Positions 9,510-64,000 of a stretch of 64,000 nt of DNA are shown in pieces. The DNA comes from Gammaproteobacteria bacterium (GTDB taxonomy: Bacteria; Pseudomonadota; Gammaproteobacteria; JBCCGL01). Under the pieces are notes generated by a model. That model saw only the letters and a list, made by a program, of their open reading frames with translations, ran no database searches and was not told the DNA's origin. Where the stretch lies: positions 3,136,001 through 3,200,000 of the forward strand of contig OZ255836.1 in NCBI GenBank assembly GCA_965277715.1. The letters are read 5' to 3'. How positions within the stretch are numbered: position 1 is the stretch's first letter; each line of letters begins with the position of its first letter. The position numbers and the translations under genes were made by a program.

Positions 9510-10610
9510 ATGAAATTAAGCATACAGCGAGAAGCCTTTCTCAAACCTCTGTTACAGACGGTAGGCGCTGTTGAACGCCGTCAAACACTGCCTGCGTTAG
9601 GCCACTTTCTATTGTCTGCCAGAGATGGGTTGTTGCTAATAACAGCGACTGATTTGGAAATTGAGCTATTTGCCAAAACGGCTGCACATATTCAAGAAGA
9701 GGGAGAAACCACTGTTCCCGCCCGTAAATTAGTCGATATTTGTCGATCACTTCCCGAAGGGGCTGAAATCAACTTTACCTCAACGGGTGATAAAGCGGTA
9801 CTCAGTGCGGGAAAGAGCCGTTTTACCTTGTCGACGCTACCCGTTAGCGAGTTTCCCTCACTCGACGACTTTGGTATTGCCAATGGTTTTGATATTGCCC
9901 AATCCCAGTTACAAAAGGCGATTAATAAAACAGCATTCTCAATGGCACAACAAGACGTTCGCTATTATTTGAACGGCTTATTATTTGAGGTATCAAACGA
10001 ACAGTTACGCTGTGTCGCAACAGATGGCCATCGTTTATCGTTGAGCACGGTAAAGACTGATACAGGGATCGATCAAACAACACAGGTGATTGTGCCACGA
10101 AAGGGGGTTAACGAATTATCCCGTCTATTGAGTGATACGGATGAAGCAGCCGAGTTTCAGCTTTCTGGTAATCATATACGCGTCAATCTACCCGAGGTAC
10201 GCTTTACCTCGAAGCTGATTGATGGGAAATTTCCCGATTACTACCGCGTACTTCCCGAGGGCAATGACAAAACAGTTATTGCCGACCGTGAATTGTTACG
10301 CCAGTCTTTGTCACGTGCTGCAATTTTATCGAATGAAAAGTATAAAGGCGTTCGGTTGAGCATTGCCGATAACCTTATGAATATAAAAACACATAACCCT
10401 GACCACGAAGAGGCAGAGGATGAGCTTTCCGTTGAGTATCAGGGCGAGTCTTTTGAAGTAGGCTTTAATGTTGTGTACTTACTGGACATTCTCAACACAT
10501 TGGAAGGTAATACAATAAAAATCAACTTGCGCGACTCAAACAGTTCCTGCCTGGCAACGGAAGTGGGTTCAGATGACTTTCGCTATGTTGTCATGCCCAT
10601 GCGTTTATAG
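9510..10610 (+). CDS. dnaN: DNA polymerase III beta clamp
   Basis: ATDLEIEL, QQDVRYYLNG, VATDGHRL, C-terminal YVVMPMRL. Confidence 0.98.
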   Translation: MKLSIQREAFLKPLLQTVGAVERRQTLPALGHFLLSARDGLLLITATDLEIELFAKTAAHIQEEGETTVPARKLVDICRSLPEGAEINFTSTGDKAVLSAGKSRFTLSTLPVSEFPSLDDFGIANGFDIAQSQLQKAINKTAFSMAQQDVRYYLNGLLFEVSNEQLRCVATDGHRLSLSTVKTDTGIDQTTQVIVPRKGVNELSRLLSDTDEAAEFQLSGNHIRVNLPEVRFTSKLIDGKFPDYYRVLPEGNDKTVIADRELLRQSLSRAAILSNEKYKGVRLSIADNLMNIKTHNPDHEEAEDELSVEYQGESFEVGFNVVYLLDILNTLEGNTIKINLRDSNSSCLATEVGSDDFRYVVMPMRL

Positions 10611-10619
10611 GGCAATGCG

Positions 10620-11702: not shown

Positions 11703-11715
11703 TCGCGCCACTTAA

Positions 11716-14139
<2,424 letters not shown>

Positions 14140-49408: not shown

Positions 49409-49656
49409 TTACCCTCTCAGAAATGATCCATTGAGCCTGAATTGGAGATAGAGGAACGACTAAGATTCAGTTTTTCAGTCTTGTCCGCTGTGGTGTTCAT
49501 TAACAACACTTAAAAGAGAGCTTCAACGATCCTTCAAGCACTCTCGTCACTCTATCTGGGGTTTTGGGTAAAATTAATAATTAGAACACCACCCTCAATT
49601 CTTGCTAATATCTCTTAATATTCTTAGTACAAATGAATTCTATACTGGATCAATTC

Positions 49657-50631
49657 ATGGCACTTGCCGACCAATTAAAAGCTTTGCTTCAGTCGCACTC
49701 CGAAGGCGACGATGCACAGTTTTATTCGATAGCAATGCAGCTAGCAGCACATGAGGCTAAAGTGGGCCATGGAAAGTTGGCAAAAGAGCTTAGAGAACTC
49801 ATAGATCAAGCCAAAAGCGTATCATCGTATAATAAAAAGCCGGTACTCATCACACGGCCAAGAGGTGAGCTATCTGAACTCCTCTCGGCTAGTTATCCCA
49901 AGCTAAATTTGAGCGATATTGTATTATCCGCAGAAATTGAGGAAAGGTTAAATCGGCTAGTCAAAGAACACCGGGAGATTCGCAATTTACGGAGCTATGG
50001 ATTGTCTCCTCGACGGAGAATTTTATTAGTTGGCCCTCCTGGTACTGGCAAAACCCTCACTGCATCGACAATCGCTGGAGAGTTGGGGTTACCACTGTTC
50101 ACTGTTCGGCTTGATAGCCTTATTACTAAATTCATGGGGGAAACTGCCTCAAAACTACGATTGGTCTTTGATGCGATCGCCCAAACGCGAGGCGTCTATT
50201 TATTTGATGAGTTTGATAGCATTGGTTCTCAAAGAGGTCTAGCAAATGACGTCGGTGAGATTCGCAGGGTACTAAACAGCTTCCTTCAAATGGTTGAACA
50301 AGATTCATCCGATAGCATTATCTTTGCTGCAACTAATCATATAGAAATTTTGGATCATGCTCTTTTTAGACGCTTTGATGACATCATTGATTACGAGCTT
50401 CCCGAAAAAACTGAAATAGTTTTAGCGTTTAAATCAAAATTAGCTAGTTCCAAAGTCTCACGGATTGAATGGCAGAAGCTTGCTTTATTGAGTGATGGAT
50501 TGAGTTTTGCTGATATTACCCATGTCTGTGAAGATGCGATTAAGAACGTAATAATAAATAGAAAACCGTCTGTGACTACAGCTGAGCTAGTTAAGTCTAT
50601 TAGCGATAGAAAACGTATTCGGAAAAATTAG
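49657..50631 (+). CDS. AAA+ ATPase, IetA-like
   Basis: QLAAHEAK.GH, GPPGTGKT, LITKFMGET, FDEFDSIG, NDVGEIRRVLNS, ALFRRFDD. Confidence 0.88.
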   Translation: MALADQLKALLQSHSEGDDAQFYSIAMQLAAHEAKVGHGKLAKELRELIDQAKSVSSYNKKPVLITRPRGELSELLSASYPKLNLSDIVLSAEIEERLNRLVKEHREIRNLRSYGLSPRRRILLVGPPGTGKTLTASTIAGELGLPLFTVRLDSLITKFMGETASKLRLVFDAIAQTRGVYLFDEFDSIGSQRGLANDVGEIRRVLNSFLQMVEQDSSDSIIFAATNHIEILDHALFRRFDDIIDYELPEKTEIVLAFKSKLASSKVSRIEWQKLALLSDGLSFADITHVCEDAIKNVIINRKPSVTTAELVKSISDRKRIRKN

Positions 50632-53138
50632 TGTCTGAACCTCCTGAAGGCAAGTTACGGCATCTAATCGTTAATGGATTTCATGAATCAAGCGAATACT
50701 CTTCGCCAAATTCTGGCCGCCCTCCAGGTTTTAGAACACCGAGAAGAGACAGAGAAGCTCATTCACAGCGACTTACCGAGCAGTTGCAATACGCACAAGC
50801 TCGCGAGGTGGAAATAGTTAGGCAACAACGCGCAATTGGGCTAGATGCAGGAAATGGAATTTACATTAAATTTGAGAGTGATCCAGGTTTCGAGCTCAAA
50901 TTTAAAAGTTTAGAATTTACAACAAGTGGCATTGAGCTGTGTTCGGTAAAACGAATTGGCACTACTGGCACTACTACAGCTACGGTATTTGTCCCAGAAG
51001 GAAAATTAGACCACTTTCTAAAACGGATAACTAAATACAAAGAAGAGGATACAAAACCGAGAACTGAAGAAGGAATCTCCAAGGCTTGTCATAAAGATTT
51101 AGTCGAGAGTATAGGCAATATACGGCTGGCATCTCTAGAAGCGCTTTGGACTGACGACCCTGCCCTTTTCCCTCAAGCCGACGAACCTATTTGGTGGGAA
51201 ATTTGGCTAAGAGACAACGAAACGCTTGACTACGAAGGGCTCGCTCGTGAGCACCTCAATCAAATGGAACTCACTGTATCTCCTGACTCTATCAAGTTTA
51301 TTGACAGAACAATCATTCTGGTAAATGGCTCAAAAACTCAATTAACCAACTCTATACTTCTCTTGGGGTTCATAGCAGAAGTTCGAAAAGCTAAGGAAAA
51401 TGCTTCCTTCTTTCTTGGGCTTGACCGAAAAGAACAAAACGAATGGGTCACAGATTTAGTTGAACGAACAACGCCACCCGGCCCAAATCCACCATCAGTT
51501 TGCATTATGGATACCGGCGTGAACTGCTTACATCCATTATTAGCTATTTGTAGTTCAGATGATGATATGCATACGTATAGTCCTGAATGGGGAACGGATG
51601 ATCGATTCGGCCATGGCACCCAAATGGCTGGCCTCGCCACTTATGGCGACCTGACAAATTGCCTCGGCCATACAGACGAAGTAAGCATTTCTGGCATATT
51701 GGAATCTGCAAAGATAATCCCCTCACCTCGCTTTTCTCATGAAAAGCACCTATATGGCGCTATTATTCGCGAAAGTGTAGCGCGAGTGGAGGTCGGAGGA
51801 CGACGGTTGCGAACTTTTTGCCTGGCTGTTACAGCCGATGATGCCCGAGACAGGGGTAAACCATCTTCCTGGTCTGCCTCAATTGATGCGATTAGTTCTG
51901 GATATGAAGATGAGCAGCGTCGGTTATTTATACTTTCTGCGGGAAATACTGATCCTGGCGGTCGTGCTGATTATCCATGTAGCAATTTCACTGATGAAGT
52001 GCATGATCCAGGTCAATCGTGGAATTCACTGACTGTAGGTGCTTACACAGATAAAGATAATCTCGATACTGAAAAATACCCAGGGTGGACACCTATCGCG
52101 CCAAGAGGAGATATTGCTCCCTCTAGCTGCACCTCCATGCAATGGGCGAAAGCATGGCCAATCAAGCCAGAAATAGTTCTTGAAGGTGGCAATATGGGGA
52201 AAAACCCTGCTGACGGTTCTGCTGATTATATTGATGACAACCTACAACTATTGACTACTGGTCATCAACCTTTACTTGATCGTCAGATAGTTTCTTTTGG
52301 CGACACCAGTGCTGCTGCCGCTCTTGCTGCAAAGCATTCTTGCGACCTTCAAGCAACTTATCCTGAATTTTGGCCTGAGACTATAAAGGCATTATTTGTC
52401 CATTCTGCTGAGTGGACAGAAGCAATGAAAGAGAGATTCGATTTAAAGAAACAAAAGGGGTATCGACAACTTCTGAAATACTGCGGCTATGGGGTTCCTA
52501 ACTTTGAAAAGCTTGCTTGGAGTACAAAAAGCTCGCTATGTATAGTGAGTCAAGAAATGTTACAACCTTACCAGCGAATCGGTTCTAAAAAACCCTCAAC
52601 CCGAGACATCAACATCTACATGCTACCTTGGCCGGATGAAGTTTTAGCAAATATCCCAGAAGACACGCCTGTCGAAATGAAAGTAACCCTTTCATATTTT
52701 ATAGAACCAAATCCTGGTGCACGAGGATGGTCGACAAAGTATCAATACGCCTCGCATGGCCTTAGATTTCAGGTTAGACGACCTCTAGAAAGCCTTGATT
52801 CATTCAAGGCACGCATAAATCAGAAAGCTAGAGATGAAGAACTGGGAAGATATACAACTACTGCTGACTCAGGCAAATGGCAATTAGGTGAAAAGCTACG
52901 AACGCTAGGGTCGATTCACAGTGACACCTGGACTGGCAATGCCCTAGAGCTAATCCAGAGAAAGAACCTCGCTATCTACCCTGTGGGGGGGTGGTGGAAG
53001 GAGCGAATTAAAGCGGACAGGTGGCATAAATCAGCTCGATATGCGCTTATAGTATCGCTGAGTACACCCACCTTAGAAACAGATATGTACACACCTATAG
53101 CTCAGCAGATTGAGAATCGAGTTGGTATTGAAGTGTAA
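50631..53138 (+). CDS. S8 subtilisin-like serine peptidase, IetS-like
   Basis: IMDTGV, GHGTQMAG, SAGN, IKPEIV, DTSAAA; WWEIWL, YASHGLRF, IYPVGGWWK; translationally coupled to the ATPase. Confidence 0.88.
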   Translation: MSEPPEGKLRHLIVNGFHESSEYSSPNSGRPPGFRTPRRDREAHSQRLTEQLQYAQAREVEIVRQQRAIGLDAGNGIYIKFESDPGFELKFKSLEFTTSGIELCSVKRIGTTGTTTATVFVPEGKLDHFLKRITKYKEEDTKPRTEEGISKACHKDLVESIGNIRLASLEALWTDDPALFPQADEPIWWEIWLRDNETLDYEGLAREHLNQMELTVSPDSIKFIDRTIILVNGSKTQLTNSILLLGFIAEVRKAKENASFFLGLDRKEQNEWVTDLVERTTPPGPNPPSVCIMDTGVNCLHPLLAICSSDDDMHTYSPEWGTDDRFGHGTQMAGLATYGDLTNCLGHTDEVSISGILESAKIIPSPRFSHEKHLYGAIIRESVARVEVGGRRLRTFCLAVTADDARDRGKPSSWSASIDAISSGYEDEQRRLFILSAGNTDPGGRADYPCSNFTDEVHDPGQSWNSLTVGAYTDKDNLDTEKYPGWTPIAPRGDIAPSSCTSMQWAKAWPIKPEIVLEGGNMGKNPADGSADYIDDNLQLLTTGHQPLLDRQIVSFGDTSAAAALAAKHSCDLQATYPEFWPETIKALFVHSAEWTEAMKERFDLKKQKGYRQLLKYCGYGVPNFEKLAWSTKSSLCIVSQEMLQPYQRIGSKKPSTRDINIYMLPWPDEVLANIPEDTPVEMKVTLSYFIEPNPGARGWSTKYQYASHGLRFQVRRPLESLDSFKARINQKARDEELGRYTTTADSGKWQLGEKLRTLGSIHSDTWTGNALELIQRKNLAIYPVGGWWKERIKADRWHKSARYALIVSLSTPTLETDMYTPIAQQIENRVGIEV

Positions 53139-53376
53139 AAACGTGAAAGTGATCGCTAATATGTTTGGCTATAGCTGTGTCAGCAGCCTTTCTCCGGCGA
53201 TTGATGGGATAAAACGGAGCTTATCTGATAGAAGTCTGAAGGATATGTATGAATAGGCTTATGCTCGGTTGAATATAATTAGATATGGTTGCCCCTTTTC
53301 CTCTTTTTTGATTGTATGCCAATGGTGGTTGATTTGATTGCGTCACTTGCCGTATCCAAGGAAGGTTTAAAAACCA

Positions 53377-53661
53377 TCAACTCCCACGAATGAACTCAAT
53401 AACAGCACGCGTAACGACATCAGTTGTTGCTGTTCCGCCAAGATCAGGCGTATGCAAAGCAGGGTTTGCAGTCGTTCGCTCAATAGCCTGCATCAGCATT
53501 TCAGATGCTGTTGCCTCGCCCAGGTGTTCCAGCATCAAGACCGCTGTCCAAAAGGTCCCGATAGGGTTTGCAATCCCCTTGCCGGTAATATCAAAGGCAG
53601 AACCGTGAATCGGCTCGAACATTGAAGGAAATTGTCGCTCTGGGTTCAGGTTTGCGGTGTG
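53377..53661 (-). pseudogene. 3' fragment of a tartrate/isopropylmalate dehydrogenase gene
   Basis: TANLNPERQFPSMFEPIHGSAFDITGKGIANP...TPDLGG; 5' part replaced by an AAGGGGGTCAG junction. Confidence 0.85.
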
Positions 53662-53675
53662 CAAGCAAGGGGGTC

Positions 53676-53903
53676 AGCAAGGGGGTCAGGCTTATTATTC
53701 ACCATACAACGACTAATACGGATAAAAACAGTGATTTCCAGCAATGAAGTATAGAAAATAACTGCCTTGACCCCTTTTTCCTTATGTAAATAGCAAGGGG
53801 GTCAGGCTTATTATTCACCATACAACGACTAATACGGATAAAAACAGTGATTTCCAGCAATGAAGTATAGAAAATAACTGCCTTGACCCCTTTTTCCTTA
53901 TGT
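53676..53903. mobile_element. two tandem ~112-bp MITE-like units with imperfect terminal inverted repeats
   Basis: AAGGGGGTCAGGCTTATT...AATAACTGCCTTGACCCCTT; copies start at 53676 and 53792. Confidence 0.65.
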
Positions 53904-54951
53904 CATAAATCGCTACTTCGTTGTCGTCTATATCCCGGTTTAACAGCCGTGTGTTCGAGTTTTCTGCATCACCGAGAACGACCTCACCCTCGCCCACTGT
54001 TCCCAGGGTTTTGGTTTTGCTGTGTTGATTGTCATTGCTGTAGTCCAGGCTGACGGTTTGTCCTAGCCCCACACTCGCCGAGGTTGAGCGCGCTTCTACT
54101 GTGTTGTTCAGGCTGCCCACTTCCAGGGTATTGGTAACTAGCGTCAGTTGTTGGTTGTCATTACCGTCTTCATCCACGGCGGCTATCGTTGCCCCTCGCA
54201 ATGTCGTCGCTTCCGCCACAGTGATGTCGACTGTTTCACCCAGCAATTGGGTGTCTACGGTGTTTTTGATCACCGATCGCGCCCTGGCGTTGCTTAGCCC
54301 CGCTGAGTTGATGCCACTGCTGCTAAACCCGGCACTGAACCCCTGGGATTGACTGCGGTCTTTGGTGCTGTTTTGCACCGAGGCCACATGCAGGGTTTGG
54401 GTGTTCAGGCTCAGGGTGTCGCCCGCCGCTACATCCGCCCCTTTAATCTGCGTGGTATCTCTTGTGGTGATCGTGATGTTATTGGCCAACAGGGAGGCGT
54501 TGGTTTGCGTGATCTCACGGCGGCTGCTACTGGCGCTGTCACTGCTCAGGTTGACACCACCCCCACTGCCCCCGTACAGATCGATCGAGATATTGACGTT
54601 TCTATGCTCGGTGCTGGTTTCCCGCGTTGAAAGATCCTGGGAGGCGAGGATGTTTAAGTCCTGACTGTCGATGGTGATACCTTCACCGGCTTGCAGGTGG
54701 CTACCCTGTATCGTGGCGGTGTTGTTGGCATTGATGGTAATCGTATTACCCGCACTCAACGTCGAGGCCACTGAACGCTGCTGGGCTTCACTCAGTTGTT
54801 CTTCCAGCACATCCAGATCAATTTCAAGGCCCGCGTTAAAGCCGTAGGTGCCGCTGCTCGCCGCTGCCTTGGCCAAATGTGCGGTGGTGCCGACACACAG
54901 GCAAGCCAATAGAACAATCAACAGGTTATGACAAACAAGAGAAAGACGCAT
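53900..54951 (-). pseudogene. truncated toxin cassette 4 (signal peptide + hemagglutinin repeats, no toxin tip)
   Basis: near-identical to the first ~351 aa of the two complete toxins; homology stops at VAIYDI at the TGACCCC-T junction. Confidence 0.85.
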
Positions 54952-55113
54952 AAACAGAGTGTAACGATTGGTGAGTATTTGGCGAGTAGTTTTTCTTTTC
55001 GGTGGGAATTTACAAATATCGTTAGCGCGACCAGTGGGCCAAGTTTATCAACCGATCAATATAATACTTGCCTCTAATTTTTCTTTTGAATGCAATTAAA
55101 TATACCTGACCCC
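54952..55113 (-). repeat. conserved ~160-bp toxin leader, copy 4
   Basis: near-identical to 59243-59404, 59757-59918 and 63248-63409; begins GGGGTCAGGTATATTTAATTGC on the minus strand; partial fifth copy at 55221-55312. Confidence 0.9.
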
Positions 55114-55392
55114 TTTTGTTGCTTCTTGACCTCTTTTATTGCTTCTATGAGATGATGTACCAGATTGAAAGTCAGTTGAATAGTGAATAACTGGCCTGAC
55201 CCCTTTTTTCTTTTTTTGCTTTAGCGCGACCAGTGGGCCAAGTTTATCAACCGATCAATATAATACTTGCCCCTAATTTTTCTTTTGAATGTAATTAAAT
55301 ATACCTGACCCCTTTTATTGCTTCTATGAGATGATGTACCAGATTGAAAGTCAGTTGGATAGTGAATAACTGGCCTGACCCCTTTTATTTTT

Positions 55393-55593
55393 ATCCTGGC
55401 GAAACACGGTTCTGGGCATCGGGAGAACTCCAAGCGATTGGCTTGGCGTCACAGGATAACCAAAAACAGATTAAATGTTTACGAAAACTTATTTCAGCAC
55501 TTTCTCAGATACCGCGTTTTTACTGGGTGGCTGGGGTATTCAAACCTATAACGGGAAGTGCTGAAATACTTACAGCTTAAGGAAGTGCCATTC
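55393..55593 (-). mobile_element. probable left end of an IS4-family element
   Basis: terminal IR GAATGGCACTTCCTTAAG (55576-55593), internal inverted repeat, GGAG plus ATG start (MPRTVFRQD) cut at a motif junction. Confidence 0.55.
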
Positions 55594-55611
55594 ATACCTG
55601 ACCCCTTTTAT

Positions 55612-55812
55612 TGTGTGGGTAATCGACCGGGGCGTATTGAACCAAGAGTGGTTAAACGAAGACCCAAACCATATCCTTTATTGATGCAGCCAAGGGACGT
55701 GGCCAGAAGTGTTGTTAAAAAATATGGCCATCCCAAAAAACAGAAATAGGTCATTTACAATGAAAGTACTTCCATATTTTTCATGTACTTAGAGCTTAAG
55801 GAAGTGCCATTC
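55612..55812 (+). mobile_element. right end of an IS4-family element (transposase C-terminus + IR)
   Basis: VGNRPGRIEPRVVKRRPKPYPLL...GHPKKQK*, IR CTTAAGGAAGTGCCATTC 55795-55812. Confidence 0.75.
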
Positions 55813-55862
55813 TGGCCTGACCCCTTTTTTCTTCCTTTTTTCTCTTAACGCGACTGAATTGG

Positions 55863-56156
55863 CTAACTGTTCTGCCGCAAAGAGGTATGAATTTCAGCTA
55901 CTGTTTCCCACGAAGAAAACGGTGAATCGGGATTTTCATTAAATGGTTTCAACTGATGGGAAAAACCCTCTGAGACTCGACTGGATGTCCACATAGAAAG
56001 TTTTTCCCTGTCTGAACCGAATTCGTCATTCATTAGCACTCGCTCTAACACAAGGTATAATTCTCGATATGGACTAGATTCGTCGCACCAATTTAATCTT
56101 TTCGCGTTATCCAACAACCAACGTAAACGTTCTTTAATGGATTGGTTAATACTCAT
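55863..56156 (-). CDS. putative immunity protein for toxin B
   Basis: 97 aa, AT-rich, start overlaps the toxin stop codon. Confidence 0.7.
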   Translation of the reverse strand: MSINQSIKERLRWLLDNAKRLNWCDESSPYRELYLVLERVLMNDEFGSDREKLSMWTSSRVSEGFSHQLKPFNENPDSPFSSWETVAEIHTSLRQNS

Positions 56157-59100
56157 TATGGTTGACTCAATGTCTCGCCCAACGTAACCGGAGGATTAGT
56201 ACCGTAAGTAGTTCCGCCAGGAGCAAATGTTTGCCATCCTTGACCAGGCAACGGGTTCAAACCTGTCCAATTTTGGGGTGCAACAACACCTTCAAGCACA
56301 TGAACAGGCTGGTTAACAGTCCCGACATTCAAGTACGTAGCAGGATTATTTGGAGGCAATGCCAGGTTATCAACAACTTGGCTCGGCACTTGCCCTGCTG
56401 TTCCGGGTGTTAAGAACTGCCCTGATGCAGGATTTGTGGAACCACCAGAATAAATTCCAAATATCTCTCCAGGTTGAGCCTGACGAATATAAATAGGGCC
56501 ATCAAAGGACTCAACAATACCACTGATATTACCTTCGGGGACTCCTGTTTGGCGTAGGTAATCCGCCGCCTGATCTGGGGTAACTTCATATCTTGGTGTT
56601 GGCGCTTCCGGAGCATTAGGCGGATTAACTAGTGTACCGTTTACATGGCCACCATTAGGAAACTCTATACGGGCAATTTGCCTCTCTGACTCACCAGGCA
56701 GATCCACATCACGACTTGGCGCAACATCCCCACCTACTCTACCACGCCCCGTAACCAAATCAACCGCCCTGTCCTTAACATCCTCCGGGATAATCTTCGC
56801 TACCTTGTTTATTACCGCCGTCTCTGCCGCCCATAAACCCAGGCTAACCGCTCCATCAACAAACACACTCTGGTCTCCCTGATGGCTTTCTGTCGTGAAT
56901 GAATCCAATACACGCTGGCCTTGGACACTTGTATAATCACCAAACAACGTCACCGCACCATCCACTGCCTGAGCCGCCGCCAGGCCCGTTAATGCCGCCG
57001 TCCCTACCGGTGCCGCACAACCCACCACCGTCGTACACAGTGGCGATGTCGCTATCGTTGCCCCTGCACCAACAACTGTGCCCACAGTGCCAATCCCTGC
57101 ATTGATCGCTCCCCCCGTTCTGTGGATTATTTCCCCATTTGCATCAACACCGTCTTGTACTCTGTCACCCAAACCGTATTCAAACTGATCAGCCGGCACC
57201 ACGCTCCCCAACATACCCTCTAGCGTCGCCCCCTGGGATTGCAGTTCTTCGCCCAACGCCTGCAAGGTTGCCAGTTGTTCGTAGTGCGCATCATCTTCTG
57301 GCACACCTTGCGCGCAATTCACCGCTGCACACGCAACAGCATCCAGCTGCGCCCTCATCGTTTGTTGTTCTTCTGCACTTAAATCTGCACGCGCACTGAT
57401 GTTGGCTCGCGCCTGTACCAGCGTTTGTGCTTCTCTTGTATGGAATTGGCGGTTGTTCACTACCGCGTTACCCACTGCGTTCGCACGTACCGTGCCCTGC
57501 GTAACCGCATTGCTTGTTATCAACGTCTCCCTAAATTCCGTACCCCCGGTACTATCAAGATCGCCGCCTGCCGCCTGGTTTAAACGCCCTGATAACTGTT
57601 CGCCAAACGCATCCGCCACCACTTCCTGACCTGCATCATTTGCCTCCCCTTCCTGCAACGTCCGGTTTTCGATTAATTCATGCCCTAAGGTCGTGAGTAA
57701 ATCCGTTTTACTTTCCCCGTTTGCATCAACAAATAGGTCACCGTATTGATCATGGCTTTCATCCGCTACCGTGCCACCTCTTCTGTCCAGAAGAAGGTTA
57801 TCCCCCAGTGACGCACTCGTTGTCGTTGTGCCGTCGTACAGGTTGATCTCACTCAGCGAGACACCAAACTTTTCCTGTGCCAGGTGACCTACTTCAACCA
57901 TTCCCTGAGCGTACAACTCACCATCACCACTGAGGAGTTTCTCCAATATTGCGGCATTCTCCGGGTTGCGTAGCAGGTCATTTTTCAGTTGCGTGCCCAC
58001 TGTGTTGTTTTGCGCGACTTCAAAGAAATCGAGCAGGTTCAGGGCATCGTTTTCCGATAAGGTCTCGGCGGCACGGGCAAGATCTTGACCCAATTCCGCA
58101 CTATCAACAAAGTCGTTTCTAATCCCTTCCCGACCTGCTTCTGTCAACAACCGCGTATCCAACGACCCACTCAACCCCTGGTGCGATTCAATGTCATAAA
58201 TCGCCACTTCGTTGTCGTCTATATCCCGGTTTAACAGCCGTGTGTTCGAGTTTTCTGCATCACCGAGAACGACCTCACCCTCGCCCACTGTTCCCAGGGT
58301 TTTGGTTTTGCTGTGTTGATTGTCATTGCTGTAGTCCAGGCTGACGGTCTGCCCAACACCCACACTCGCCGAGGTCGAGCGCGCTTCTACTGTGTTGTTC
58401 AGGCTGCCCACTTCCAGGGTGTTGGTAACTAGCGTCAGTTGTTGGTTGTCATTACCGTCTTCATCCACGGCGGCTATCGTTGCCCCTCGCAATGTCGTCG
58501 CTTCCGCCACGGTGATGTCGACTGTTTCACCCAGCAATTGGGTGTCTACGGTGTTTTTGATCACCGATCGCGCCCTGGCATTGCTTAGCCCCGCTGAGTT
58601 GATGCCACTGCTGCTAAACCCGGCACTGAACCCCTGGGATTGACTGCGGTCTTTGGTGCTGTTTTGCACCGAGGCCACATGCAGGGTTTGGGTGTTCAGG
58701 CTCAGGGTGTCGCCCGCCGCTACATCCGCCCCTTTGATCTGCGTGGTATCTCTTGTGTTTATCGTAATGTTATTGGCCAACAGGGAGGCGTTGGTTTGTG
58801 TGATCTCACGGCGGCTGCTACTGGCGCTGTCACTGCTCAGGTTGACACCACCCCCACTGCCCCCGTACAGATCAATGGCAATATTGACATTTCTATGCTC
58901 GGTGCTGGTTTCCCGGGTCGAGAGGTCTTGGGAGGCGAGGACGTTTAAATCCTGACTGTCGATGGTGATACCTTCACCGGCTTGCAGGTGACTGCCCTGC
59001 ACTGTAGCGGTGTTGTTGGCATTGATAGTAATCGTGTTACCCGCACTCAACGTCGAGGCCACTGAACGCTGCTGGGCTTCACTCAGTTGTTCTTCCAGTA

Positions 59101-59242
59101 CATCCAGGTCAATTTCAAGGCCTGCGTTAAAGCCGTAAGTGCCGCTGCTCGCCGCTGCCTTGCCCAAATGTGTGGCGGTGCCGACACACAGGCAAGCCAA
59201 TAAAACAATCAACAGGTTATGACAAACAAGAGAAAGACGCAT
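56156..59242 (-). CDS. polymorphic toxin B: signal peptide, hemagglutinin repeats, degenerate peptidase-like region, TNT-like C-terminal domain
   Basis: FHA-2-like repeats, LDTRLL, VVNNRQFH, ACAAVNCAQGVP, C-terminal GQFLTP/LALPP/VLEGVVAPQ/PGQGWQ. Confidence 0.8.
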   Translation of the reverse strand: MRLSLVCHNLLIVLLACLCVGTATHLGKAAASSGTYGFNAGLEIDLDVLEEQLSEAQQRSVASTLSAGNTITINANNTATVQGSHLQAGEGITIDSQDLNVLASQDLSTRETSTEHRNVNIAIDLYGGSGGGVNLSSDSASSSRREITQTNASLLANNITINTRDTTQIKGADVAAGDTLSLNTQTLHVASVQNSTKDRSQSQGFSAGFSSSGINSAGLSNARARSVIKNTVDTQLLGETVDITVAEATTLRGATIAAVDEDGNDNQQLTLVTNTLEVGSLNNTVEARSTSASVGVGQTVSLDYSNDNQHSKTKTLGTVGEGEVVLGDAENSNTRLLNRDIDDNEVAIYDIESHQGLSGSLDTRLLTEAGREGIRNDFVDSAELGQDLARAAETLSENDALNLLDFFEVAQNNTVGTQLKNDLLRNPENAAILEKLLSGDGELYAQGMVEVGHLAQEKFGVSLSEINLYDGTTTTSASLGDNLLLDRRGGTVADESHDQYGDLFVDANGESKTDLLTTLGHELIENRTLQEGEANDAGQEVVADAFGEQLSGRLNQAAGGDLDSTGGTEFRETLITSNAVTQGTVRANAVGNAVVNNRQFHTREAQTLVQARANISARADLSAEEQQTMRAQLDAVACAAVNCAQGVPEDDAHYEQLATLQALGEELQSQGATLEGMLGSVVPADQFEYGLGDRVQDGVDANGEIIHRTGGAINAGIGTVGTVVGAGATIATSPLCTTVVGCAAPVGTAALTGLAAAQAVDGAVTLFGDYTSVQGQRVLDSFTTESHQGDQSVFVDGAVSLGLWAAETAVINKVAKIIPEDVKDRAVDLVTGRGRVGGDVAPSRDVDLPGESERQIARIEFPNGGHVNGTLVNPPNAPEAPTPRYEVTPDQAADYLRQTGVPEGNISGIVESFDGPIYIRQAQPGEIFGIYSGGSTNPASGQFLTPGTAGQVPSQVVDNLALPPNNPATYLNVGTVNQPVHVLEGVVAPQNWTGLNPLPGQGWQTFAPGGTTYGTNPPVTLGETLSQP

Positions 59243-59404
59243 AAACAGAGTGTAACGATTGGTGAGTATTTGGCGAGTAGTTTTTCTTTTCGGTAGGAAT
59301 TTACAAATATCGTTAGCGCGACCAGTGGGCCAAGTTTATCAACCGATCAATATAATACTTGCCCTTAATTTTTCTTTTGAATGCAATTAAATATACCTGA
59401 CCCC
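59243..59404 (-). repeat. conserved toxin leader, copy 3
   Basis: near-identical to the other three leaders. Confidence 0.9.
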
Positions 59405-59490
59405 TTTTATTGCTTCTATGAGATGATGTACCAGATTGAAAGTCAGTTGAATAGTGAATAACTGACCTGACCCCTTTTTTCCTTTTTTTT

Positions 59491-59756
59491 CCGGCTTGCA
59501 GGTGACTGCCCTGCACTGTAGCGGTGTTGTTGGCATTGATGGTAATCGTGTTACCCGCACTCAACGTCGAGGCGACTGAACGCTGCTGGGCTTCACTCAG
59601 TTGTTCTTCCAGTACATCCAGGTCAATTTCAAGACCTGCGTTAAAACCGTAAGTGCCGCTGCTCGCCGCTGCCTTGCCCAAATGTGCGGCGGTGCCGACA
59701 CACAGGCAAGCCAATAGAACAATCAACAGGTTATGACAAACAAGAGAAAGACGCAT
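59491..59756 (-). pseudogene. truncated toxin cassette 2 (first ~88 codons only)
   Basis: same N-terminus, ends at GSHLQAG at the TGACCCC-T junction (59468-59490). Confidence 0.85.
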
Positions 59757-59918
59757 AAACAGAGTGTAACGATTGGTGAGTATTTGGCGAGTAGTTTTTC
59801 TTTTCGGTGGGAATTTACAAATATCGTTAGCGCGACCAGTGGGCCAAGTTTATCAACCGATCAATATAATACTTGCCTCTAATTTTTCTTTTGAATGCAA
59901 TTAAATATACCTGACCCC
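59757..59918 (-). repeat. conserved toxin leader, copy 2
   Basis: near-identical to the other three leaders. Confidence 0.9.
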
Positions 59919-60041
59919 TTTTGTTAAGGAAGTGCCATTCTGCCTTGACCTCTTTTTTTGAATAGTGAATAACTGGCCTGACCCCTTTTCTTTGCTTGAC
60001 TCTTCTACTTCTACTTTTTTCCGTTTAATGTGGAACGTTGG

Positions 60042-60356
60042 TCAAAGGTCTCTTTCTTCAAAATGATCAGACATCGTTTTCAGATAATCCATGCAAGCAT
60101 TAAAATCAGGTTGGAAATCAGCAGTGGTTCTAACTTCACCTTTGTCACTCAAAACTAAAGCAGACTTACGTAAACTGGCATTTTTTGGAATCTCGATCTC
60201 TGGATTTCGGAAAAACATCCACGCTCGCCCATGATTCAAACATTTACTTTGAAGCAGCGCCTGCCCTTCTTTTAGAAAAAACGACCACTCAATTGCTCCA
60301 GCATTTACAGCAAGTGAAACAATTTCTTCATACGTTAATTTTGAATTTTTCATCAT
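60042..60356 (-). CDS. putative immunity protein for toxin A
   Basis: 104 aa, AT-rich, ATGA overlap with the toxin stop; AWMFFRN motif reminiscent of Imm35/YrhB-like proteins. Confidence 0.7.
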   Translation of the reverse strand: MMKNSKLTYEEIVSLAVNAGAIEWSFFLKEGQALLQSKCLNHGRAWMFFRNPEIEIPKNASLRKSALVLSDKGEVRTTADFQPDFNACMDYLKTMSDHFEERDL

Positions 60357-63247
60357 GGATAACCCGGTATCACAGTCAAATTAGGTTGTAAGTCAACGAT
60401 ACTACCCAACTGAGGATCAACATAATGGACCGTACCACCCCTGTTCACGCCAACAATCACATGCTCAACGCCACCACTTTGTTGAATACGGACCACAGCC
60501 ACTGCACCATCACCTTGCCCTAAAAGAGTGTTGGTAACACTTGACGGCGTAGTAGCTCTACTAAACCCCCATGGTGCTGATGGAAGCAAATCATTTGGAG
60601 TGCCATAGCCAGCGGATGGTGCAGCAACTGCGTTTGGGTTTCTTCCTGTTAAGCGATCAACAGTAGCATTTACACCTGCACTTGCGCCATCAACATAATG
60701 CGGATTCACACCAGCTAGTTCAGGAAACTCATCGGTCATTGGCCGTGTACTGCCGTAAATTCTATCAACAGCACTGCCACAACGTCCACCCGCACAACTA
60801 TTTGTAGCTACTCCACTTGCAGCATTACCCGCCTCAACCTCAACCTCAACATCCGTACCCGTATCCGCAGTATTACTTACATTTTGATCATTCCCTAGAC
60901 CATCCACTTGAGCAACCTGACCATCACCCTCAAGATTAGTGCTACTATTATCCCTCGGTATATCTAGATCCGGTCCATTTGGAGCATCTGGACCATCACC
61001 CAATCCCCTCAATACACGGTCCAGCTTACCCAATCCCACTATACCTGCAAGGTATGCCCCGTAATTCTCACCCTCTTCAAACGAACCCGATAAACCACCA
61101 TTATCCAGTGTGGCAATCTCTTCCATTGCTTCATTTATTTCTTTACCAGCATTGTCTAAGCTTGTCCTTATCTGTTCCTTTTCTTCTTCCGTAACCGGGC
61201 TGCCCTCATAGATCTCGTGCAAGCGATTTAACGCACCACCCAGTTCGCTTACTACCCGTTCTGCCTCCTCTGGGTCTTCTATTAATTCGTTGATTTGATC
61301 AACTAGCGCAACCACATCTTCTATTGTCTGCTCAACCGCACCTGATGCCATTCCCAACATTTCTGCTGCACCTTGGACTGCGCTGACTGTGTAATAGAAC
61401 TGATTCGTCACCATCTCACAAGACCTTCCATCGCACGCTTCAAGATCCTCTCGCTGTTCCGCTTCCTGGGTGGGTGTCAGACGGTTATCACCCTCATCTT
61501 TATCCAATCCTTCAAACTCTGCATTGTTTTCAGCTACACGCTCACTCGTTTCAGTCCCTACACGGTTATTCTCGCTCGCCAACCCTCCTTCGTAACCATT
61601 TACCTCCAGCGCAAACTCCGTGTATTCCGCCAGGTTTTCACCGTAATTGTCCGCATAGCTTTCATTGTCCTGCGTATTATCAAGGTCTACTTCTTCCGAT
61701 TGCCTGTCTATCGCATGTGAGGTCTCGTGGCCCGCTGTGGTGATTAGTTCTTCGGTATTCTCTATGTGTTGATCATTGATATACGCATGACCCGTTTCAT
61801 CTGAGTAGTAACCTTGCACCGCCTCACCGTCCCGGCCTGCCACATCAGTATTGACTAGCCTGTTTTCGTGGCTTTCGTAGCCCAGCTCGGCCATCACCGA
61901 TGAGGTAATCTGGTTGAGCAGTTGTTCTTTCTCTGCCGGGTTTAGATTCGGGTTTTGCAGTGCATTGGCCAATGCAGGGGTGTTGGCTATTTCAGTCTTT
62001 ACCGCCTCGTAGGTGCGATGGGCTTTATCTGTTTCACTGAAAAAGTCTTCAACTCCTACGCGCTCTGTCGTGGCGATCAGTTCGATGGTATTGACGATCA
62101 TTTCCGATTTAAGAATATCCTCGGCAATCGCCGTTCTTCCTCTTTCTGTCAACAACCGCGTATCCAACGACCCACTCAACCCCTGGTGCGATTCAATGTC
62201 ATAAATCGCTACTTCGTTGTCGTCTATATCCCGGTTTAACAGCCGTGTGTTCGAGTTTTCTGCATCACCGAGAACGATTTCACCCTCGCCCACTGTTCCC
62301 AGGGTTTTGGTTTTGCTGTGTTGATTGTCATTGCTGTAGTCCAGGCTGACGGTCTGCCCAACACCCACACTCGCCGAGGTCGAGCGCGCTTCTACTGTGT
62401 TGTTCAGGCTGCCCACTTCCAGGGTGTTGGTAACTAGCGTCAGTTGTTGGTTGTCATTACCGTCTTCATCCACGGCAGCTATCGTTGCCCCTCGCAATGT
62501 CGTCGCTTCCGCCACGGTGATGTCGACTGTTTCACCCAGCAATTGGGTGTCTACGGTGTTTTTGATCACCGACCGCGCCCTGGCGTTGCTTAGCCCCGCT
62601 GAGTTGATGCCACTGCTGCTAAACCCCGCACTAGCCCCCTGGGATTGACTGCGGTCTTTGGTGCTGTTTTGCACCGAGGCCACATGCAGGGTTTGGGTGT
62701 TCAGGCTCAGGGTGTCGCCCGCCGCTATATCCGCACCTTTGATCTGCGTGGTATCTCTTGTGTTTATCGTAATGTTATTGGCCAGCAGGGAGGCGTTGGT
62801 TTGCGTGATCTCACGGCGGCTGCTACTGGCGCTGTCACTGCTCAGGTTGACACCACCCCCACTGCCCCCGTACAGGTCGATCGAGATATTGACGTTTCTA
62901 TGCTCAGTGCTGGTTTCCCGCGTTGAAAGATCCTGGGAGGCGAGGACGTTTAAGTCCTGACTGTCGATGGTGATACCTTCACCGGCTTGCAGGTGGCTAC
63001 CCTGTATCGTGGCGGTGTTGTTGGCATTGATGGTAATCGTGTTACCTGCACTCAATGTCGAGGCCACTGAACGCTGCTGGGCTTCACTCAGTTGTTCTTC
63101 CAGTACATCCAGGTCAATTTCAAGACCTGCGTTAAAACCGTAAGTGCCGCTGCTCGCCGCTGCCTTGCCCAAATGTGCGGCGGTGCCGACACACAGGCAA
63201 GCCAATAGAACAATCAACAGGTTATGACAAACAAGAGAAAGACGCAT
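60353..63247 (-). CDS. polymorphic toxin A: signal peptide, hemagglutinin repeats, HExxH domain, papain-like (Tox-PL) tip
   Basis: FHA-2-like repeats, LDTRLL, GHETSH, C-terminal GVNP...DRLTG...EHV...GTVHYVDPQLG. Confidence 0.8.
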   Translation of the reverse strand: MRLSLVCHNLLIVLLACLCVGTAAHLGKAAASSGTYGFNAGLEIDLDVLEEQLSEAQQRSVASTLSAGNTITINANNTATIQGSHLQAGEGITIDSQDLNVLASQDLSTRETSTEHRNVNISIDLYGGSGGGVNLSSDSASSSRREITQTNASLLANNITINTRDTTQIKGADIAAGDTLSLNTQTLHVASVQNSTKDRSQSQGASAGFSSSGINSAGLSNARARSVIKNTVDTQLLGETVDITVAEATTLRGATIAAVDEDGNDNQQLTLVTNTLEVGSLNNTVEARSTSASVGVGQTVSLDYSNDNQHSKTKTLGTVGEGEIVLGDAENSNTRLLNRDIDDNEVAIYDIESHQGLSGSLDTRLLTERGRTAIAEDILKSEMIVNTIELIATTERVGVEDFFSETDKAHRTYEAVKTEIANTPALANALQNPNLNPAEKEQLLNQITSSVMAELGYESHENRLVNTDVAGRDGEAVQGYYSDETGHAYINDQHIENTEELITTAGHETSHAIDRQSEEVDLDNTQDNESYADNYGENLAEYTEFALEVNGYEGGLASENNRVGTETSERVAENNAEFEGLDKDEGDNRLTPTQEAEQREDLEACDGRSCEMVTNQFYYTVSAVQGAAEMLGMASGAVEQTIEDVVALVDQINELIEDPEEAERVVSELGGALNRLHEIYEGSPVTEEEKEQIRTSLDNAGKEINEAMEEIATLDNGGLSGSFEEGENYGAYLAGIVGLGKLDRVLRGLGDGPDAPNGPDLDIPRDNSSTNLEGDGQVAQVDGLGNDQNVSNTADTGTDVEVEVEAGNAASGVATNSCAGGRCGSAVDRIYGSTRPMTDEFPELAGVNPHYVDGASAGVNATVDRLTGRNPNAVAAPSAGYGTPNDLLPSAPWGFSRATTPSSVTNTLLGQGDGAVAVVRIQQSGGVEHVIVGVNRGGTVHYVDPQLGSIVDLQPNLTVIPGYP

Positions 63248-63409
63248 AAACAGAGTGTAACGATTGGTGAGTATTTGGCGAGTAGTTTTTCTTTTCGGTA
63301 GGAATTTACAAATATCGTTAGCGCGACCAGTGGGCCAAGTTTATCAACCGATCAATATAATACTTGCCCCTAATTTTTCTTTTGAATGCAATTAAATATA
63401 CCTGACCCC
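63248..63409 (-). repeat. conserved toxin leader, copy 1
   Basis: near-identical to the other three leaders. Confidence 0.9.
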
Positions 63410-63493
63410 TTTTGTTAAGGAAGTGCCATTCTGCCTTGACCTCTTTTTTTTAATAGTGAATAACTGGCCTGACCCCTTTTTGGACCCCTTTTT

Positions 63494-64000
63494 GATTATG
63501 TGACGCTCATCAATGATATCGATGGAGGGCGAGTATTGGATGTAGTGAAAGTGAAAGATCGCACCCAGGCAGCGTGTGAGGAGGCGTTGGAGGTTGCGCT
63601 GACGGATAACCAGCGAGAACAGGTGAAAGCTGTCGCTATTGATAGGTGGCCTGCGTTCATTAATGCCGTTGAGGTAAAACTGTCAGACAGTGCGATTGTT
63701 CACGACCGTTTTCCTATTAGCCAACACCTGAATAAGGCGGTGGATCAGGTCCGTCGTGACGAACATAGAGACCTTTTGTCACAGGGTGATACTCGATTGA
63801 AAAAGAGTCGTTATCACTGGTTAAAAAATGAAGAAAATTTGTCTAACAAAGCAGCCGAGCACTTTGAGTCACTCAAGCATGATCAGTTATTGACAGCCCG
63901 AGCCTGGGCGATAAAAGAACTGTTTCGTGATTTTTGGACGTATAAGACAGCGGGTTGGGCAAAGCGTTTCTTTAGCGCATGGTATGCGTGGGCAATTCGG
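63494..64000 (+). mobile_element. 5'-truncated ISL3-family transposase (runs off the window)
   Basis: manual translation DYVTLINDIDGGRVLDV...VKAVAIDRWPAF...IVHDRFPISQHLNKAVDQVRRDE...LKKSRYHWLKN...TARAWAIKE; begins directly after GACCCCTTTTT. Confidence 0.85.

Follow-up and report, generated by a model that had tools for sequence, protein, structure and literature searches.

Probable TIRYT-type transposon ends among polymorphic toxin cassettes in a gammaproteobacterial genome

What is the short motif, TGACCCC followed by a run of T, that recurs between toxin genes near one end of a 64-kb stretch of gammaproteobacterial DNA (the whole stretch analysed, hereafter the window), and does it mark the joints of a dedicated cassette system? 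A pattern search of the window finds it on the plus strand at 53768, 53884, 55107, 55197, 55306, 55376, 55599, 55818, 59398, 59468, 59912, 59979, 63403 and 63470, and inverted at 53670, 53682 and 53798, with variants TGACCTC at 55127, 59946 and 63437 and GGACCCC at 63482; the 14 exact, four variant and three inverted copies of the original prediction are thus all where it had placed them. The window holds 20 exact copies in total, 17 of them within 53670–63476, while shuffling all 64 kb 100 times gave a mean of 7.68 and never reached 20 (0/100). The copies outside the region (1531, 6882 and 44786) lie in coding sequence, with no adjoining T or A run or repeat end. Read on the minus strand, the motif is (A)n-GGGGTCA(G/A)G: an A-rich run precedes and (G/A)G follows in 18/18 copies or variants, as had been predicted for the opening of each minus-strand segment. 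The 21 motif copies reduce to about 13 independent junctions, many being duplicates.

The motif was expected at boundaries between unrelated pieces, and its toxin–immunity, toxin-fragment, IS4, ISL3 and dehydrogenase neighbours are confirmed; every junction in the array sets a precise TIR edge against an arbitrary break. The rightmost piece is an ISL3-family transposase fragment (63494–64000, plus strand; Pfam DDE_Tnp_ISL3, E 2e-37, profile positions 16–178 of 240; also NCBIfam transpos_ISL3), whose 5′ side is cut by the first motif copy and which leaves the window. The pieces that follow lie on the minus strand. A 12-nt partial end (63482–63493), consisting of an A-run and GGGGTCC, is a ‘stutter’ copy of the neighbouring end, the solo TIRYT-type end ‘B’ (63452–63481), whose body, reduced to 14 nt, matches the end adjoining a gene with Y1_Tnp and DnaA_C domains in a metagenome contig (L134) and which has a duplicate at 59957–59989. 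Next come the motif, 4 nt and an exact 18-nt IS4-subgroup inverted repeat, ‘C’ (63414–63451; duplicate at 59923–59956), and an ‘A’ segment (63248–63413), in which a motif-led TIR-like end is joined to the upstream region of toxin 2 and promoter-like hexamers occur at 63386–63357. Polymorphic toxin 2 (60353–63247, 964 aa) has a signal-like N-terminus, a haemagglutinin repeat and a variable C-terminus, and is followed by putative immunity gene 2 (60042–60356, 104 aa, no family), so designated from its position and its overlap with the toxin stop.

Beyond this cassette, a second A segment (59757–59922) leads into a toxin 5′ fragment (59491–59756) comprising the first 265 coding nucleotides, broken against an A-run, the motif and a B end (59409–59490) with a 53-nt body and duplicates at 55317–55386 and 55138–55220. 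A third A segment (59243–59408) stands upstream of polymorphic toxin 1 (56156–59242, 1028 aa) and putative immunity gene 1 (55863–56156, 97 aa, no family). Two motif-led IS4-type end fragments come next, one of about 208 nt belonging to ‘C’ (55610–55828), with the transposase C-terminus on the plus strand, and a diverged one of about 212 nt (55387–55609, family D9). They are succeeded by an A segment that stops after 96 nt and has no toxin gene (55221–55316), a 20-nt partial end with the TGACCTC variant (55118–55137), a fifth A segment (54952–55117) and a toxin 5′ fragment of about 1050 nt (53900–54951) broken against the miniature element ‘D’. The latter (53676–53899, unstranded, family D8) consists of two tandem copies of 112 nt, 100% identical and 116 nt apart; both inverted ends open with the motif, and on folding only the tips pair. 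Its outer edge (53660–53687, plus strand), which includes a 12-nt stutter copy, is joined to a broken isocitrate/isopropylmalate dehydrogenase gene, represented by a C-terminal fragment (53377–53659, minus strand; Pfam Iso_dh, E 6.3e-18, profile positions 262–346 of 348); in one contig of run X4 this gene runs on beyond 53659. The claim that no copy lies inside toxin coding regions holds for toxin-homologous coding sequence, which contains none in the window; the mechanical ORF 53815–54951, though, extends from the truncated toxin into one motif copy.

A precedent for the motif exists. The available excerpts of the published accounts of TIRYT genes, or TIRtrons (Di Nocera et al. 2013; Quentin et al. 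2018; PMC3733652, PMC6006769), describe flanking TIRs with a conserved tip GGGGWSAS (GGGG[AT][CG]A[CG]), present as single repeats, dimers or clusters, and characterize TIRYTs as Y1 HUH transposases (TnpAY1 subclass 2.1), often with a DnaA-like C-terminal helix-turn-helix. GGGGTCAG fits GGGGWSAS exactly, and GGGGTCAA, GAGGTCAA and GGGGTCC each deviate at one position. Judged from its sequence, TGACCCC-T(n) is the outer tip of the TIRs of TIRYT elements and their miniature derivatives. As far as these excerpts go, the likeness extends to the occurrence of repeats singly, as dimers and in clusters and to a distribution over PVC phyla and Proteobacteria, and would also take in inverted repeats around a long Y1 HUH protein that has an HTH (Bac_DnaA_C) at its C-terminus. 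The array was originally presented as a candidate new system, which it is not, because the TIRYT element family was named in 2013. The same excerpts lack several features found or presumed here: the fusion of ends with truncated genes, end-led segments that vary in length, stutter copies, the presence of several near-identical paralogues per genome and the link to toxin cassettes. By these excerpts, the precise-edge, arbitrary-break junctions and the 5′-anchored toxin copies are apparently undescribed in print. The literature searched contains no experimental demonstration of TIRYT activity.

The REP/REPIN repeats with their RAYT (TnpA-REP) proteins are similar in that the gene of a Y1 HUH protein lies between short repeats of its own, that non-autonomous doublets exist, and that the repeats form clusters and serve as targets for IS elements. 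They differ in the GTAG/CGTC tag, absent here, and in the single-copy RAYT gene, the TIRYT gene being multi-copy. A 67-nt element from Halioglobus folds into a hairpin (z −6.6); two window units (z −0.94 and −0.36) fold no better than shuffled sequences. Membership in this family is not supported, the window units having neither a GTAG/CGTC-tagged palindrome nor a stable hairpin.

Where, then, is the enzyme? The Y1_Tnp gene flanked by the motif that the original prediction proposed to look for is missing from the window, which holds just 3′ stubs of 12–17 codons of TIRYT genes, but such genes do exist in other genomes. A Y1 query gave seven matches at E<=1e-27 in three genomes, and five of the seven (L135, L136, L140, L142 and L144; ORFs of 283–338 aa) are bracketed by inverted GGGGTCAG-led repeats at most about 100 nt away on either side; L137 has a repeat on one side and L143 none. 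Pfam Y1_Tnp was passed by all six ORFs scanned (L135, L136, L137, L140, L142 and L144). The fit of the motif to TIRYT ends, together with this bracketing, supports the enzyme guess of the original prediction, which had linked such ends to RAYT-like Y1 HUH transposases. The B end pattern was found in one metagenome contig (L134), where the end abuts the stop codon of a gene with Y1_Tnp (E 1.2e-8) and Bac_DnaA_C (E 9e-11). On the plus strand, the 53-nt body of B reads as the last 12–17 codons of a TIRYT-like gene, closing with MMYQIESQLNSE and a stop. It resembles the C-terminal residues of L134/P0025 and of P0053, although the search pattern imposed the final five codons of this match. Protein cluster P0053 (322 aa, PF01797 and PF08299; 44% identical over 165 aa to an end-flanked Y1 protein of Pontiella) has five full-length members, distinct from one another, and one 135-aa fragment on a contig of 4,294,796 nt, which we presume, from its length being equal to that recorded for the contig of toxin 2 rather than from sequence, to be the contig of the window. 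Multi-copy TIRYT genes are therefore very probably present elsewhere in the same genome, and any enzyme would act in trans.

Four motif copies in the window adjoin IS4-subgroup ends, which raises the question of whether the motif is simply the target of an IS4-subgroup DDE transposase and its 11-bp duplication, the array being an IS4 graveyard in which no HUH enzyme takes part. The IS4 repeat of 18 nt stands 4–5 nt from the motif at 32 loci in many phyla, and GGGGTCA precedes it at 27 of these, the flanking GG having been left unspecified in the search. The complete IS4-type copies (n=7) are flanked by direct 11-bp repeats GGGTCAGNNNN that are identical in four and near-identical in two; in one they are inverted. 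Such complete copies measure 1570–1591 bp, encode a transposase matching NCBIfam IS4_1 and DDE_Tnp_1 and have -AATR ends. These properties agree with the -AATR ends and 10–13-bp duplications listed for the IS4 subgroup (De Palmenaer et al. 2008, Table 1; PMC2266710), some elements of which show an apparent insertion specificity termed spectacular (PMC2266710). They belong to complete relatives elsewhere, whereas the window has fragments: the 18-nt repeat twice and the two pieces of about 208 and 212 nt. The piece of about 208 nt shares 16 of 24 residues with the tail of the L011 IS4 transposase (E 6e-8). Further motif-flanked IS4 ends with other flanks occur at loose contig ends in runs X5, X7 and X1.

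We regard the graveyard reading as very unlikely all the same. Fourteen of the 18 minus-strand copies lead into A, B, D or stubs rather than the IS4 repeat, Y1_Tnp genes are bracketed by the motif with no IS4 present, and the A-run of the junctions falls outside the 11-bp duplication; nor can target duplication yield miniature elements with the motif inverted at both ends. The owner of the motif is rather the TIRYT end, the IS4 element being a secondary invader, and IS4-subgroup elements insert specifically 11–12 nt inside TIRYT-type ends.

The toxin cassettes bear on whether the array is dedicated to their assembly. Toxin 2 matches Pfam Fil_haemagg_2 (E 1.2e-14) and, below the cutoff, Gln_amidase; C-terminal domains vary among its homologues, and the function of genes 1 and 2 is presumably immunity. 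Toxin 1 with its A segment has the first 1270 nt in common with cassette 2 at 96.8% identity. The five A-led toxin copies have their first base in common, upstream of the start codon, and extend for 96, 432, 1218 and at least 1270 nt. In classical CdiA-CT/Rhs-CT orphans, toxin/immunity modules are likewise tandem, with a common conserved region and variable C-termini; the window copies, in contrast, keep the 5′ end and are cut at the 3′ end, each bounded by transposon ends. The pattern of 5′-truncated modules with the common pretoxin region only is seen in none of the five copies. In contrast to classical orphans, the cassettes bring along a start codon and an upstream region of their own, and in this the claim of complete expression cassettes is supported.

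It could follow that a trans-acting Y1 HUH enzyme assembles and reshuffles toxin expression cassettes under selection, in the manner of an integron. Each of the five toxin copies opens precisely with an end and retains the promoter-like region and start codon, both full cassettes stop 35–55 nt beyond the immunity gene against another end, a multi-copy candidate enzyme family exists, and in a contig of run X5 toxin 2 is fused at 61485 to 29 nt that resemble an end, perhaps another variant of the junctions. Integron cassette arrays have a short site at every cassette boundary and co-oriented units, and the array shares both features. Nevertheless, most segments are debris (stubs of 14–212 nt, a lone promoter, broken toxins), many junctions merely duplicate others, and the toxin copies differ by 2–4%, so the events are not recent. 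The public-run contigs show no circular cassettes and no altered order, and integrase-like logic is not seen either. Among 400 sampled genomes, no toxin homologue has such ends, the sole match lacking them. Also unlike integrons, the cassettes contain the upstream region, and a GTTRRRY core is lacking. Membership in the integrons proper is not supported, the motif forming no attC-like palindrome and the scanned ORFs adjoining the array encoding no integrase or recombinase; the wider notion of a dedicated, integron-like system we hold to be unlikely.

A parallel in Pontiella weighs further against dedication to toxins. Its genome has 60 motif sites against 10 control sites, and 37 of the 60 have a neighbour within 5 kb (random mean 5.8). 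Its end-led segments measure 123 and 508 nt, 430 nt (four times) and 4.5 kb, stutter copies are present too, and the architecture of precise end and arbitrary break is the same as in the window. The content, however, is not toxins but a recombinase/ParB unit and intergenic DNA, contrary to the predicted toxin-dedicated system. One Resolvase+Recombinase protein and two ParB_N proteins are encoded in the 4.6 kb that separate a pair of inverted ends, as though a large serine recombinase element used these ends for attachment. We give this reading next to no probability. The second Pontiella copy has no right end, five other genomes with the motif next to IS4 have no homologue at E<=1e-10, and the five other genomes with relatives of the recombinase show no such ends in the flanks examined. 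A large serine recombinase element is largely refuted, since the ends do not bound every recombinase copy.

That the repeat-rich array is an assembly artefact is suggested by the short-read contigs of public runs, which break at every repeat, none spanning the region. Contigs of X5 and X7 nevertheless bridge several junctions with 0 differences (e.g. 55798–58168 and 59958–61542), confirming local stretches, not the order of the whole array. The contig of the window is 4.29 Mb long, and motif junctions recur in the independent Pontiella isolate genome; an artefact is extremely unlikely.

We consider it probable that TIRYT ends, their miniature derivatives and IS4 fragments have collected among the toxin cassettes as a by-product of transposition, with no dedicated cassette assembly. 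The variable island would have gathered solo ends (A, B and D), including 3′ TIRYT stubs, among haemagglutinin-repeat toxin cassettes, and would also have taken up the two tandem copies of miniature D and IS4-subgroup DDE fragments. The transposase, presumably supplied in trans by several near-identical genes elsewhere in the genome, would nick the outer edge of an end, and the end bound by it might then be joined to any available 3′ end, with a replication fork or a preceding round of limited strand-displacement synthesis as possible settings. Such nicking and rejoining would give rise to duplications led by an end, to deletions and to stutter copies, and recombination between homologous copies of the conserved 5′ 1.27 kb of the toxin genes may also have shaped the array. 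Most junctions of the window could, however, have arisen without special chemistry, by an insertion and a later deletion between co-oriented ends. No target duplication is seen around the miniature elements, and the motif is not enriched in three of five other genomes with the IS4 element, which speaks against the TIRYT explanation. The fusions of ends with broken genes offer a hint of the mechanism by which these elements move DNA. One precise and one variable end, with adjacent genes carried along, are also features of IS91/ISCR, ISEcp1 and one-ended Tn3 transposition; the enzymes there are Y2 HUH or DDE, and rolling-circle intermediates are not shown here.

The length of the A-run is variable, which the TIRYT explanation leaves unaccounted for. 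An IetAS defence pair lies beside the variable island (53.6–63.5 kb).

The window contains 20 copies of TGACCCC, with 17 of them falling within 53670-63476; shuffled versions of the window contained 7.68 copies on average, and none of 100 shuffles reached 20. The remaining three copies are part of ordinary coding sequence. Read on the minus strand, all 18 copies or variants follow a single pattern, in which an A-run is followed by GGGGTCA (or a one-letter variant of it) and then by G/A-G. The original prediction took this motif for the delimiter of an integron-like system assembling toxin cassettes. Every motif coordinate it listed is correct, and its description of the pieces between the copies agrees with the annotation of ORFs and families. 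These pieces include two haemagglutinin-repeat toxins of 1028 and 964 aa (56156-59242 and 60353-63247, both on the minus strand), with a small ORF after each (the putative immunity genes at 55863-56156 and 60042-60356), along with toxin 5′ fragments, end fragments of the IS4 family, a fragment of an ISL3 transposase and an Iso_dh gene remnant comprising the last 85 codons. No known RNA family was found in 52000-64000.

What does the motif belong to? We find that it leads the terminal inverted repeats of TIRYT elements, which encode Y1 HUH transposases. A metagenome scan with a pattern for B, one of the sequence bodies following the motif, returned one contig, L134, on which a B-type end directly adjoins the stop codon of a gene whose product has a Y1_Tnp domain (E 1.2e-8) and a Bac_DnaA_C domain (E 9e-11). 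A search of five genomes with this protein gave matches at 11 places, seven of them at E<=1e-27. Five of the seven are ORFs of 283-338 aa with inverted GGGGTCAG-led repeats on both sides, one has the repeat on one side, and one contains an internal stop and has no repeat; Pfam Y1_Tnp is passed by all six that give an ORF, the stop-containing match giving none. The four weak matches are not bracketed by ends. In the available text of Di Nocera et al. 2013 (PMC3733652), such genes are named TIRYTs and the units TIRtrons, with a common end motif GGGGWSAS and with repeats occurring singly, in dimers and in clusters. The accessible portion of Quentin et al. 2018 (PMC6006769) assigns TIRYTs to subclass 2.1 of TnpAY1; their C-termini are of the Bac_DnaA_C/HTH type, and the consensus given is GGGG[AT][CG]A[CG]. 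A literature search for ‘TIRYT’ yielded only these two papers, neither of which reports activity in the portions available, and a search combining the motif string with ‘transposase’ gave nothing relevant among the matches listed. The link to HUH enzymes, which the original prediction had raised, is thus borne out by the bracketed Y1_Tnp genes in other genomes and by the published end consensus; the claim of a new system fails, as the element family is already in print.

No Y1_Tnp gene lies within the window itself. The plus-strand translation of the 53-nt form of body B (B53) ends ...MMYQIESQLNSE*, and the L134 protein (cluster P0025) ends ...VMERIEVDLNSE; the last five codons of the B53 match were fixed by the search pattern, and only the residues before them count. 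In the public sequencing run X7, the loose end of a contig extends the window's B53 reading frame upstream. A protein search with the L134 ORF recovered 7529 relatives at E<=1e-10, both domains being present in 117 of the 120 matches listed. Among the relatives listed is P0053, a protein of 322 aa ending ...KEVMHQIENQLNSK, whose cluster comprises five distinct full-length proteins plus a fragment of 135 aa, every one of them encoded on a single contig. We infer that this contig is the one carrying toxin 2, which would give the genome at least five near-identical TIRYT genes. Such a multi-copy pattern looks like that of an active insertion sequence, not of a domesticated single-copy gene.

Each end consists of the motif, four or five variable bases and one of four bodies. 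Body A is the start of the toxin upstream region (five copies); B (GTTATTCACTATTCAAC...) is also present in five copies, which keep 14 or 53 nt; C is an 18-nt repeat, GAATGGCACTTCCTTAAG, found twice alone and twice with ~210 nt of IS interior; and D is a miniature element of 112 nt whose two ends carry the motif in inverted orientation and which occurs as a tandem pair. The blocks B14-C18-A and B53-A are duplicated within the array, occurring two and three times, respectively. We count about 13 independent junctions, and in every one of them a precise edge on the motif side faces an arbitrary break on the other. Toxin coding sequence is broken off after 265 or about 1050 nt, the toxin upstream region after 96 nt, B after 14 or 53 nt, and the IS after 18, ~208 or ~212 nt; other breaks lie 35-55 nt beyond an immunity gene and within the ISL3 and dehydrogenase genes. 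Neither an A-run nor the motif is present at the position of the 265-nt break in the intact toxin copies. The five A-led copies share their starting base, with common stretches of 96, 432, 1218 and 1270 nt at 96-99% identity; having the same start and different lengths, they are therefore 5′-anchored and cut at the 3′ side. Classical orphan modules have the opposite arrangement, being anchored the other way.

Breakage at motif-like pseudo-sites was considered, and the alignments were suggestive, but the best 8-mer matches after five breaks reached 5, 6, 3, 4 and 4 of 8 positions, which is not clearly above the scores of any 28-nt stretch, and we make no claim for such sites. A role of the motif as a bidirectional terminator or hairpin target was likewise rejected: the window units fold no better than shuffles, and the region has 9 terminator-like sites against 12.1 expected, none of them at the motif. 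Each A segment contains a promoter-like pair, TTCAAA-18-TATTAT, on the minus strand (63357-63386, 59866-59895, 59352-59381, 55260-55289 and 55061-55090). We treat these hexamers as a lead, because promoter-like sites are no commoner in the region than by chance (13 against 12.4). A degenerate second end-like stretch (GGGGCAAG...) contains the second hexamer of the pair, and the toxin upstream region may itself be built from end repeats.

The ends are also the homing site of an IS4-type element. A scan for GGTCA-N5-repeat with one genome per species gave 32 loci in Gammaproteobacteria, Kiritimatiellota, Verrucomicrobiota, Planctomycetota and others; the two unspecified upstream bases are GG in 27 of the 32, and many loci have an A-run. 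Complete copies of the element are present at seven loci, four with identical 11-bp direct repeats GGGTCAGNNNN at both ends, two with near-identical repeats and one with inverted repeats. These repeats, along with the upstream GG, indicate that the element inserts at a fixed place beside the motif. Its protein (494 aa) belongs to DDE_Tnp_1 / NCBIfam IS4_1, and its size, -AATR ends and 10-13-bp duplication match the IS4 subgroup in Table 1 of PMC2266710, the available text of which ascribes ‘spectacular apparent insertion specificity’ to some members. Contigs from the window's own organism in the public runs carry more copies of the IS4 end, with direct GGGTCAAGCC flanks or with other flanks after the T-run. 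In at least four phyla, this IS of 1570-1591 bp occupies the same position, 11-12 nt inside a TIRYT-type end, and is accompanied by an 11-bp duplication GGGTCAGNNNN (L002, L003, L005, L009 and L011, and the 32 scan loci). At the Pontiella loci L067 and L070 it interrupts a 227-nt miniature element. IS homing to TIRYT ends is not mentioned in the available parts of the papers cited. Could the motif be wholly a target duplication of the IS4 element? The duplications flanking complete copies invite this minor rival reading, but a target duplication cannot give the inverted motifs at both ends of miniature elements (D in the window, the 227-nt element in Pontiella, a 67-nt element in Halioglobus), the A-run present at every junction lies outside the 11-bp duplication, and body types besides the IS4 repeat exist at the motif.

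The same architecture recurs in the Pontiella genome, where AWGGGGTCAG has 60 copies against 10 for the reversed control; for 37 of the 60, another copy lies within 5 kb, compared with a mean of 5.8 and a maximum of 22 over 2000 random placements. Among five other genomes, motif enrichment was clear in one (22 against 3) and absent in three. Co-oriented arrays in Pontiella contain end-led segments of 123 and 508 nt followed by a continuing copy, a 21-nt end stub and, at the outer edge, nested stutter copies 7-16 nt long that resemble the ones found in the window at 63482-63493 and 53660-53687. At L063 (2496-4215), four perfect tandem 430-nt copies each start with an A-run and a motif-led end; the last has no closing end and passes into unique DNA that lies upstream of a BCCT transporter gene. 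L095 (962-5564) and L133 (2590-7116) each contain a 4.5-kb unit with a TIRYT-type end at its start and genes for a large serine recombinase and two ParB_N proteins, the copies being 96.8% identical with a common starting end. A 4.6-kb stretch between two ends had prompted the idea that the ends are attachment sites of the serine recombinase; this was rejected, the second copy, at L133, stopping at an arbitrary point without a right end. The 227-nt miniature element of Pontiella, with the motif inverted at both ends, is present in six copies. In a Halioglobus MAG (L121 1495-1570, and L125), 67-nt elements with the motif inverted at both ends fold into a hairpin that is almost perfect (-20 kcal/mol, z -6.6) and represent a REPIN-like version of this end family. 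The idea of dedicated cassette assembly in the original prediction fails as well: the arrays are not toxin-specific, those in Pontiella carrying non-toxin DNA, most units in the window are debris, and no circular or reordered forms were seen.

What could generate junctions that are precise on one side and arbitrary on the other? We tentatively suggest, as a possible but rather doubtful mechanism, that TIRYT ends act as active one-ended mobilisers, a single end being nicked and its 5′ end rejoined to a free 3′ end, with end-led copying or moving of adjacent DNA. By analogy with general HUH chemistry, the TIRYT probably nicks the outer edge of an end and stays linked to the 5′ end, which, once strand-displacement synthesis has proceeded for some distance or a fork is reached, it would join to whichever 3′ end is available. 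Stutter copies would result from brief synthesis and end-led tandem duplications from more extended synthesis, and joining to a distant 3′ end would produce deletions and juxtapositions such as that of the 265-nt toxin fragment with B. The Pontiella tandem arrays without a closing end favour nick-and-rejoin over unequal crossing-over between pre-existing ends. For the junctions of the window, insertion followed by deletion between co-oriented ends is a fair alternative, and homologous recombination in the 1.27-kb conserved 5′ region of the toxins surely contributes too. No target duplication was found for the miniature elements, and its absence would suit a single-strand mechanism.

One-ended mobilisation, if real, would give a transposase family that has hardly been studied a new way of capturing genes, one conserved from Gammaproteobacteria to Kiritimatiellota, and would explain the 5′-anchored toxin copies; the DNA captured here would be a toxin-immunity cassette with promoter-like hexamers inside end-derived sequence. 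The window supplies testable substrates (an end with a sharp outer edge, ~13 independent junctions of ends to arbitrary DNA, and stutter copies); a multi-copy enzyme is probably encoded in the same genome, and the architecture recurs in a distant phylum. Should the ends move neighbouring DNA, they would add a route for duplicating and shuffling toxin-immunity and other genes and help to explain the spread of repeats by RAYT-like enzymes. Should they not, the annotation would still be useful, the striking ‘delimiter’ at toxin-island junctions being transposon debris, and the homing of an IS4-type element to TIRYT ends would stand even without mobilisation.

The public runs consist of short contigs breaking at repeats, none of which spans the array, and bins without depth (e.g. 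54005-54405) carry no weight. Sponge-metagenome runs cover small shares only (0.13-0.19), mostly repeats and conserved parts, and we draw no conclusion on habitat from the runs. A single contig of run X5 has an end with its T-run, as a 29-nt stretch finishing at 53895, fused to toxin 2 sequence at 61485, and contigs of runs X7 and X1 start or diverge at 61485 too; the X5 join may represent one more junction of an end with a toxin, or a variant toxin located elsewhere in the genome or in the population. In the sponge-metagenome run X4, the dehydrogenase gene runs on in one contig beyond 53659, the point at which the window sequence changes to the end of element D, and an uninterrupted copy or allele of this gene therefore exists.

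Both toxins belong to a family of ‘hemagglutinin repeat-containing’ proteins of 640-1650 aa with a conserved N-terminus of ~400 aa and varied C-terminal domains. They have a signal-like start and no TPS domain match, and hence are not typical CdiA proteins. A search with the toxin N-terminus in 400 sampled genomes gave one match, at 35% identity, without ends beside it. Among 277 genomes of one family, GyrB identity did not exceed 69%, which places the organism outside that family. Directly upstream of the array, at 49633-53138 on the plus strand, an AAA ATPase (332 aa) and a subtilase (835 aa) match the PADLOC models of IetA (E 2.3e-78) and IetS (E 3e-34), so that an IetAS-type defence pair borders the toxin island. 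The array region is best described as a variable island accumulating mobile-element ends beside this pair. At 5112-14139, the window carries yidC, an ORF in the dnaA position whose C-terminus matches a DnaA-like domain, and gyrB; because of this gene order and a turn of the GC skew near 8-10 kb, we place the replication origin next to the window. The array lies ~45-55 kb from the origin, and nearly all of its ends are in one orientation.
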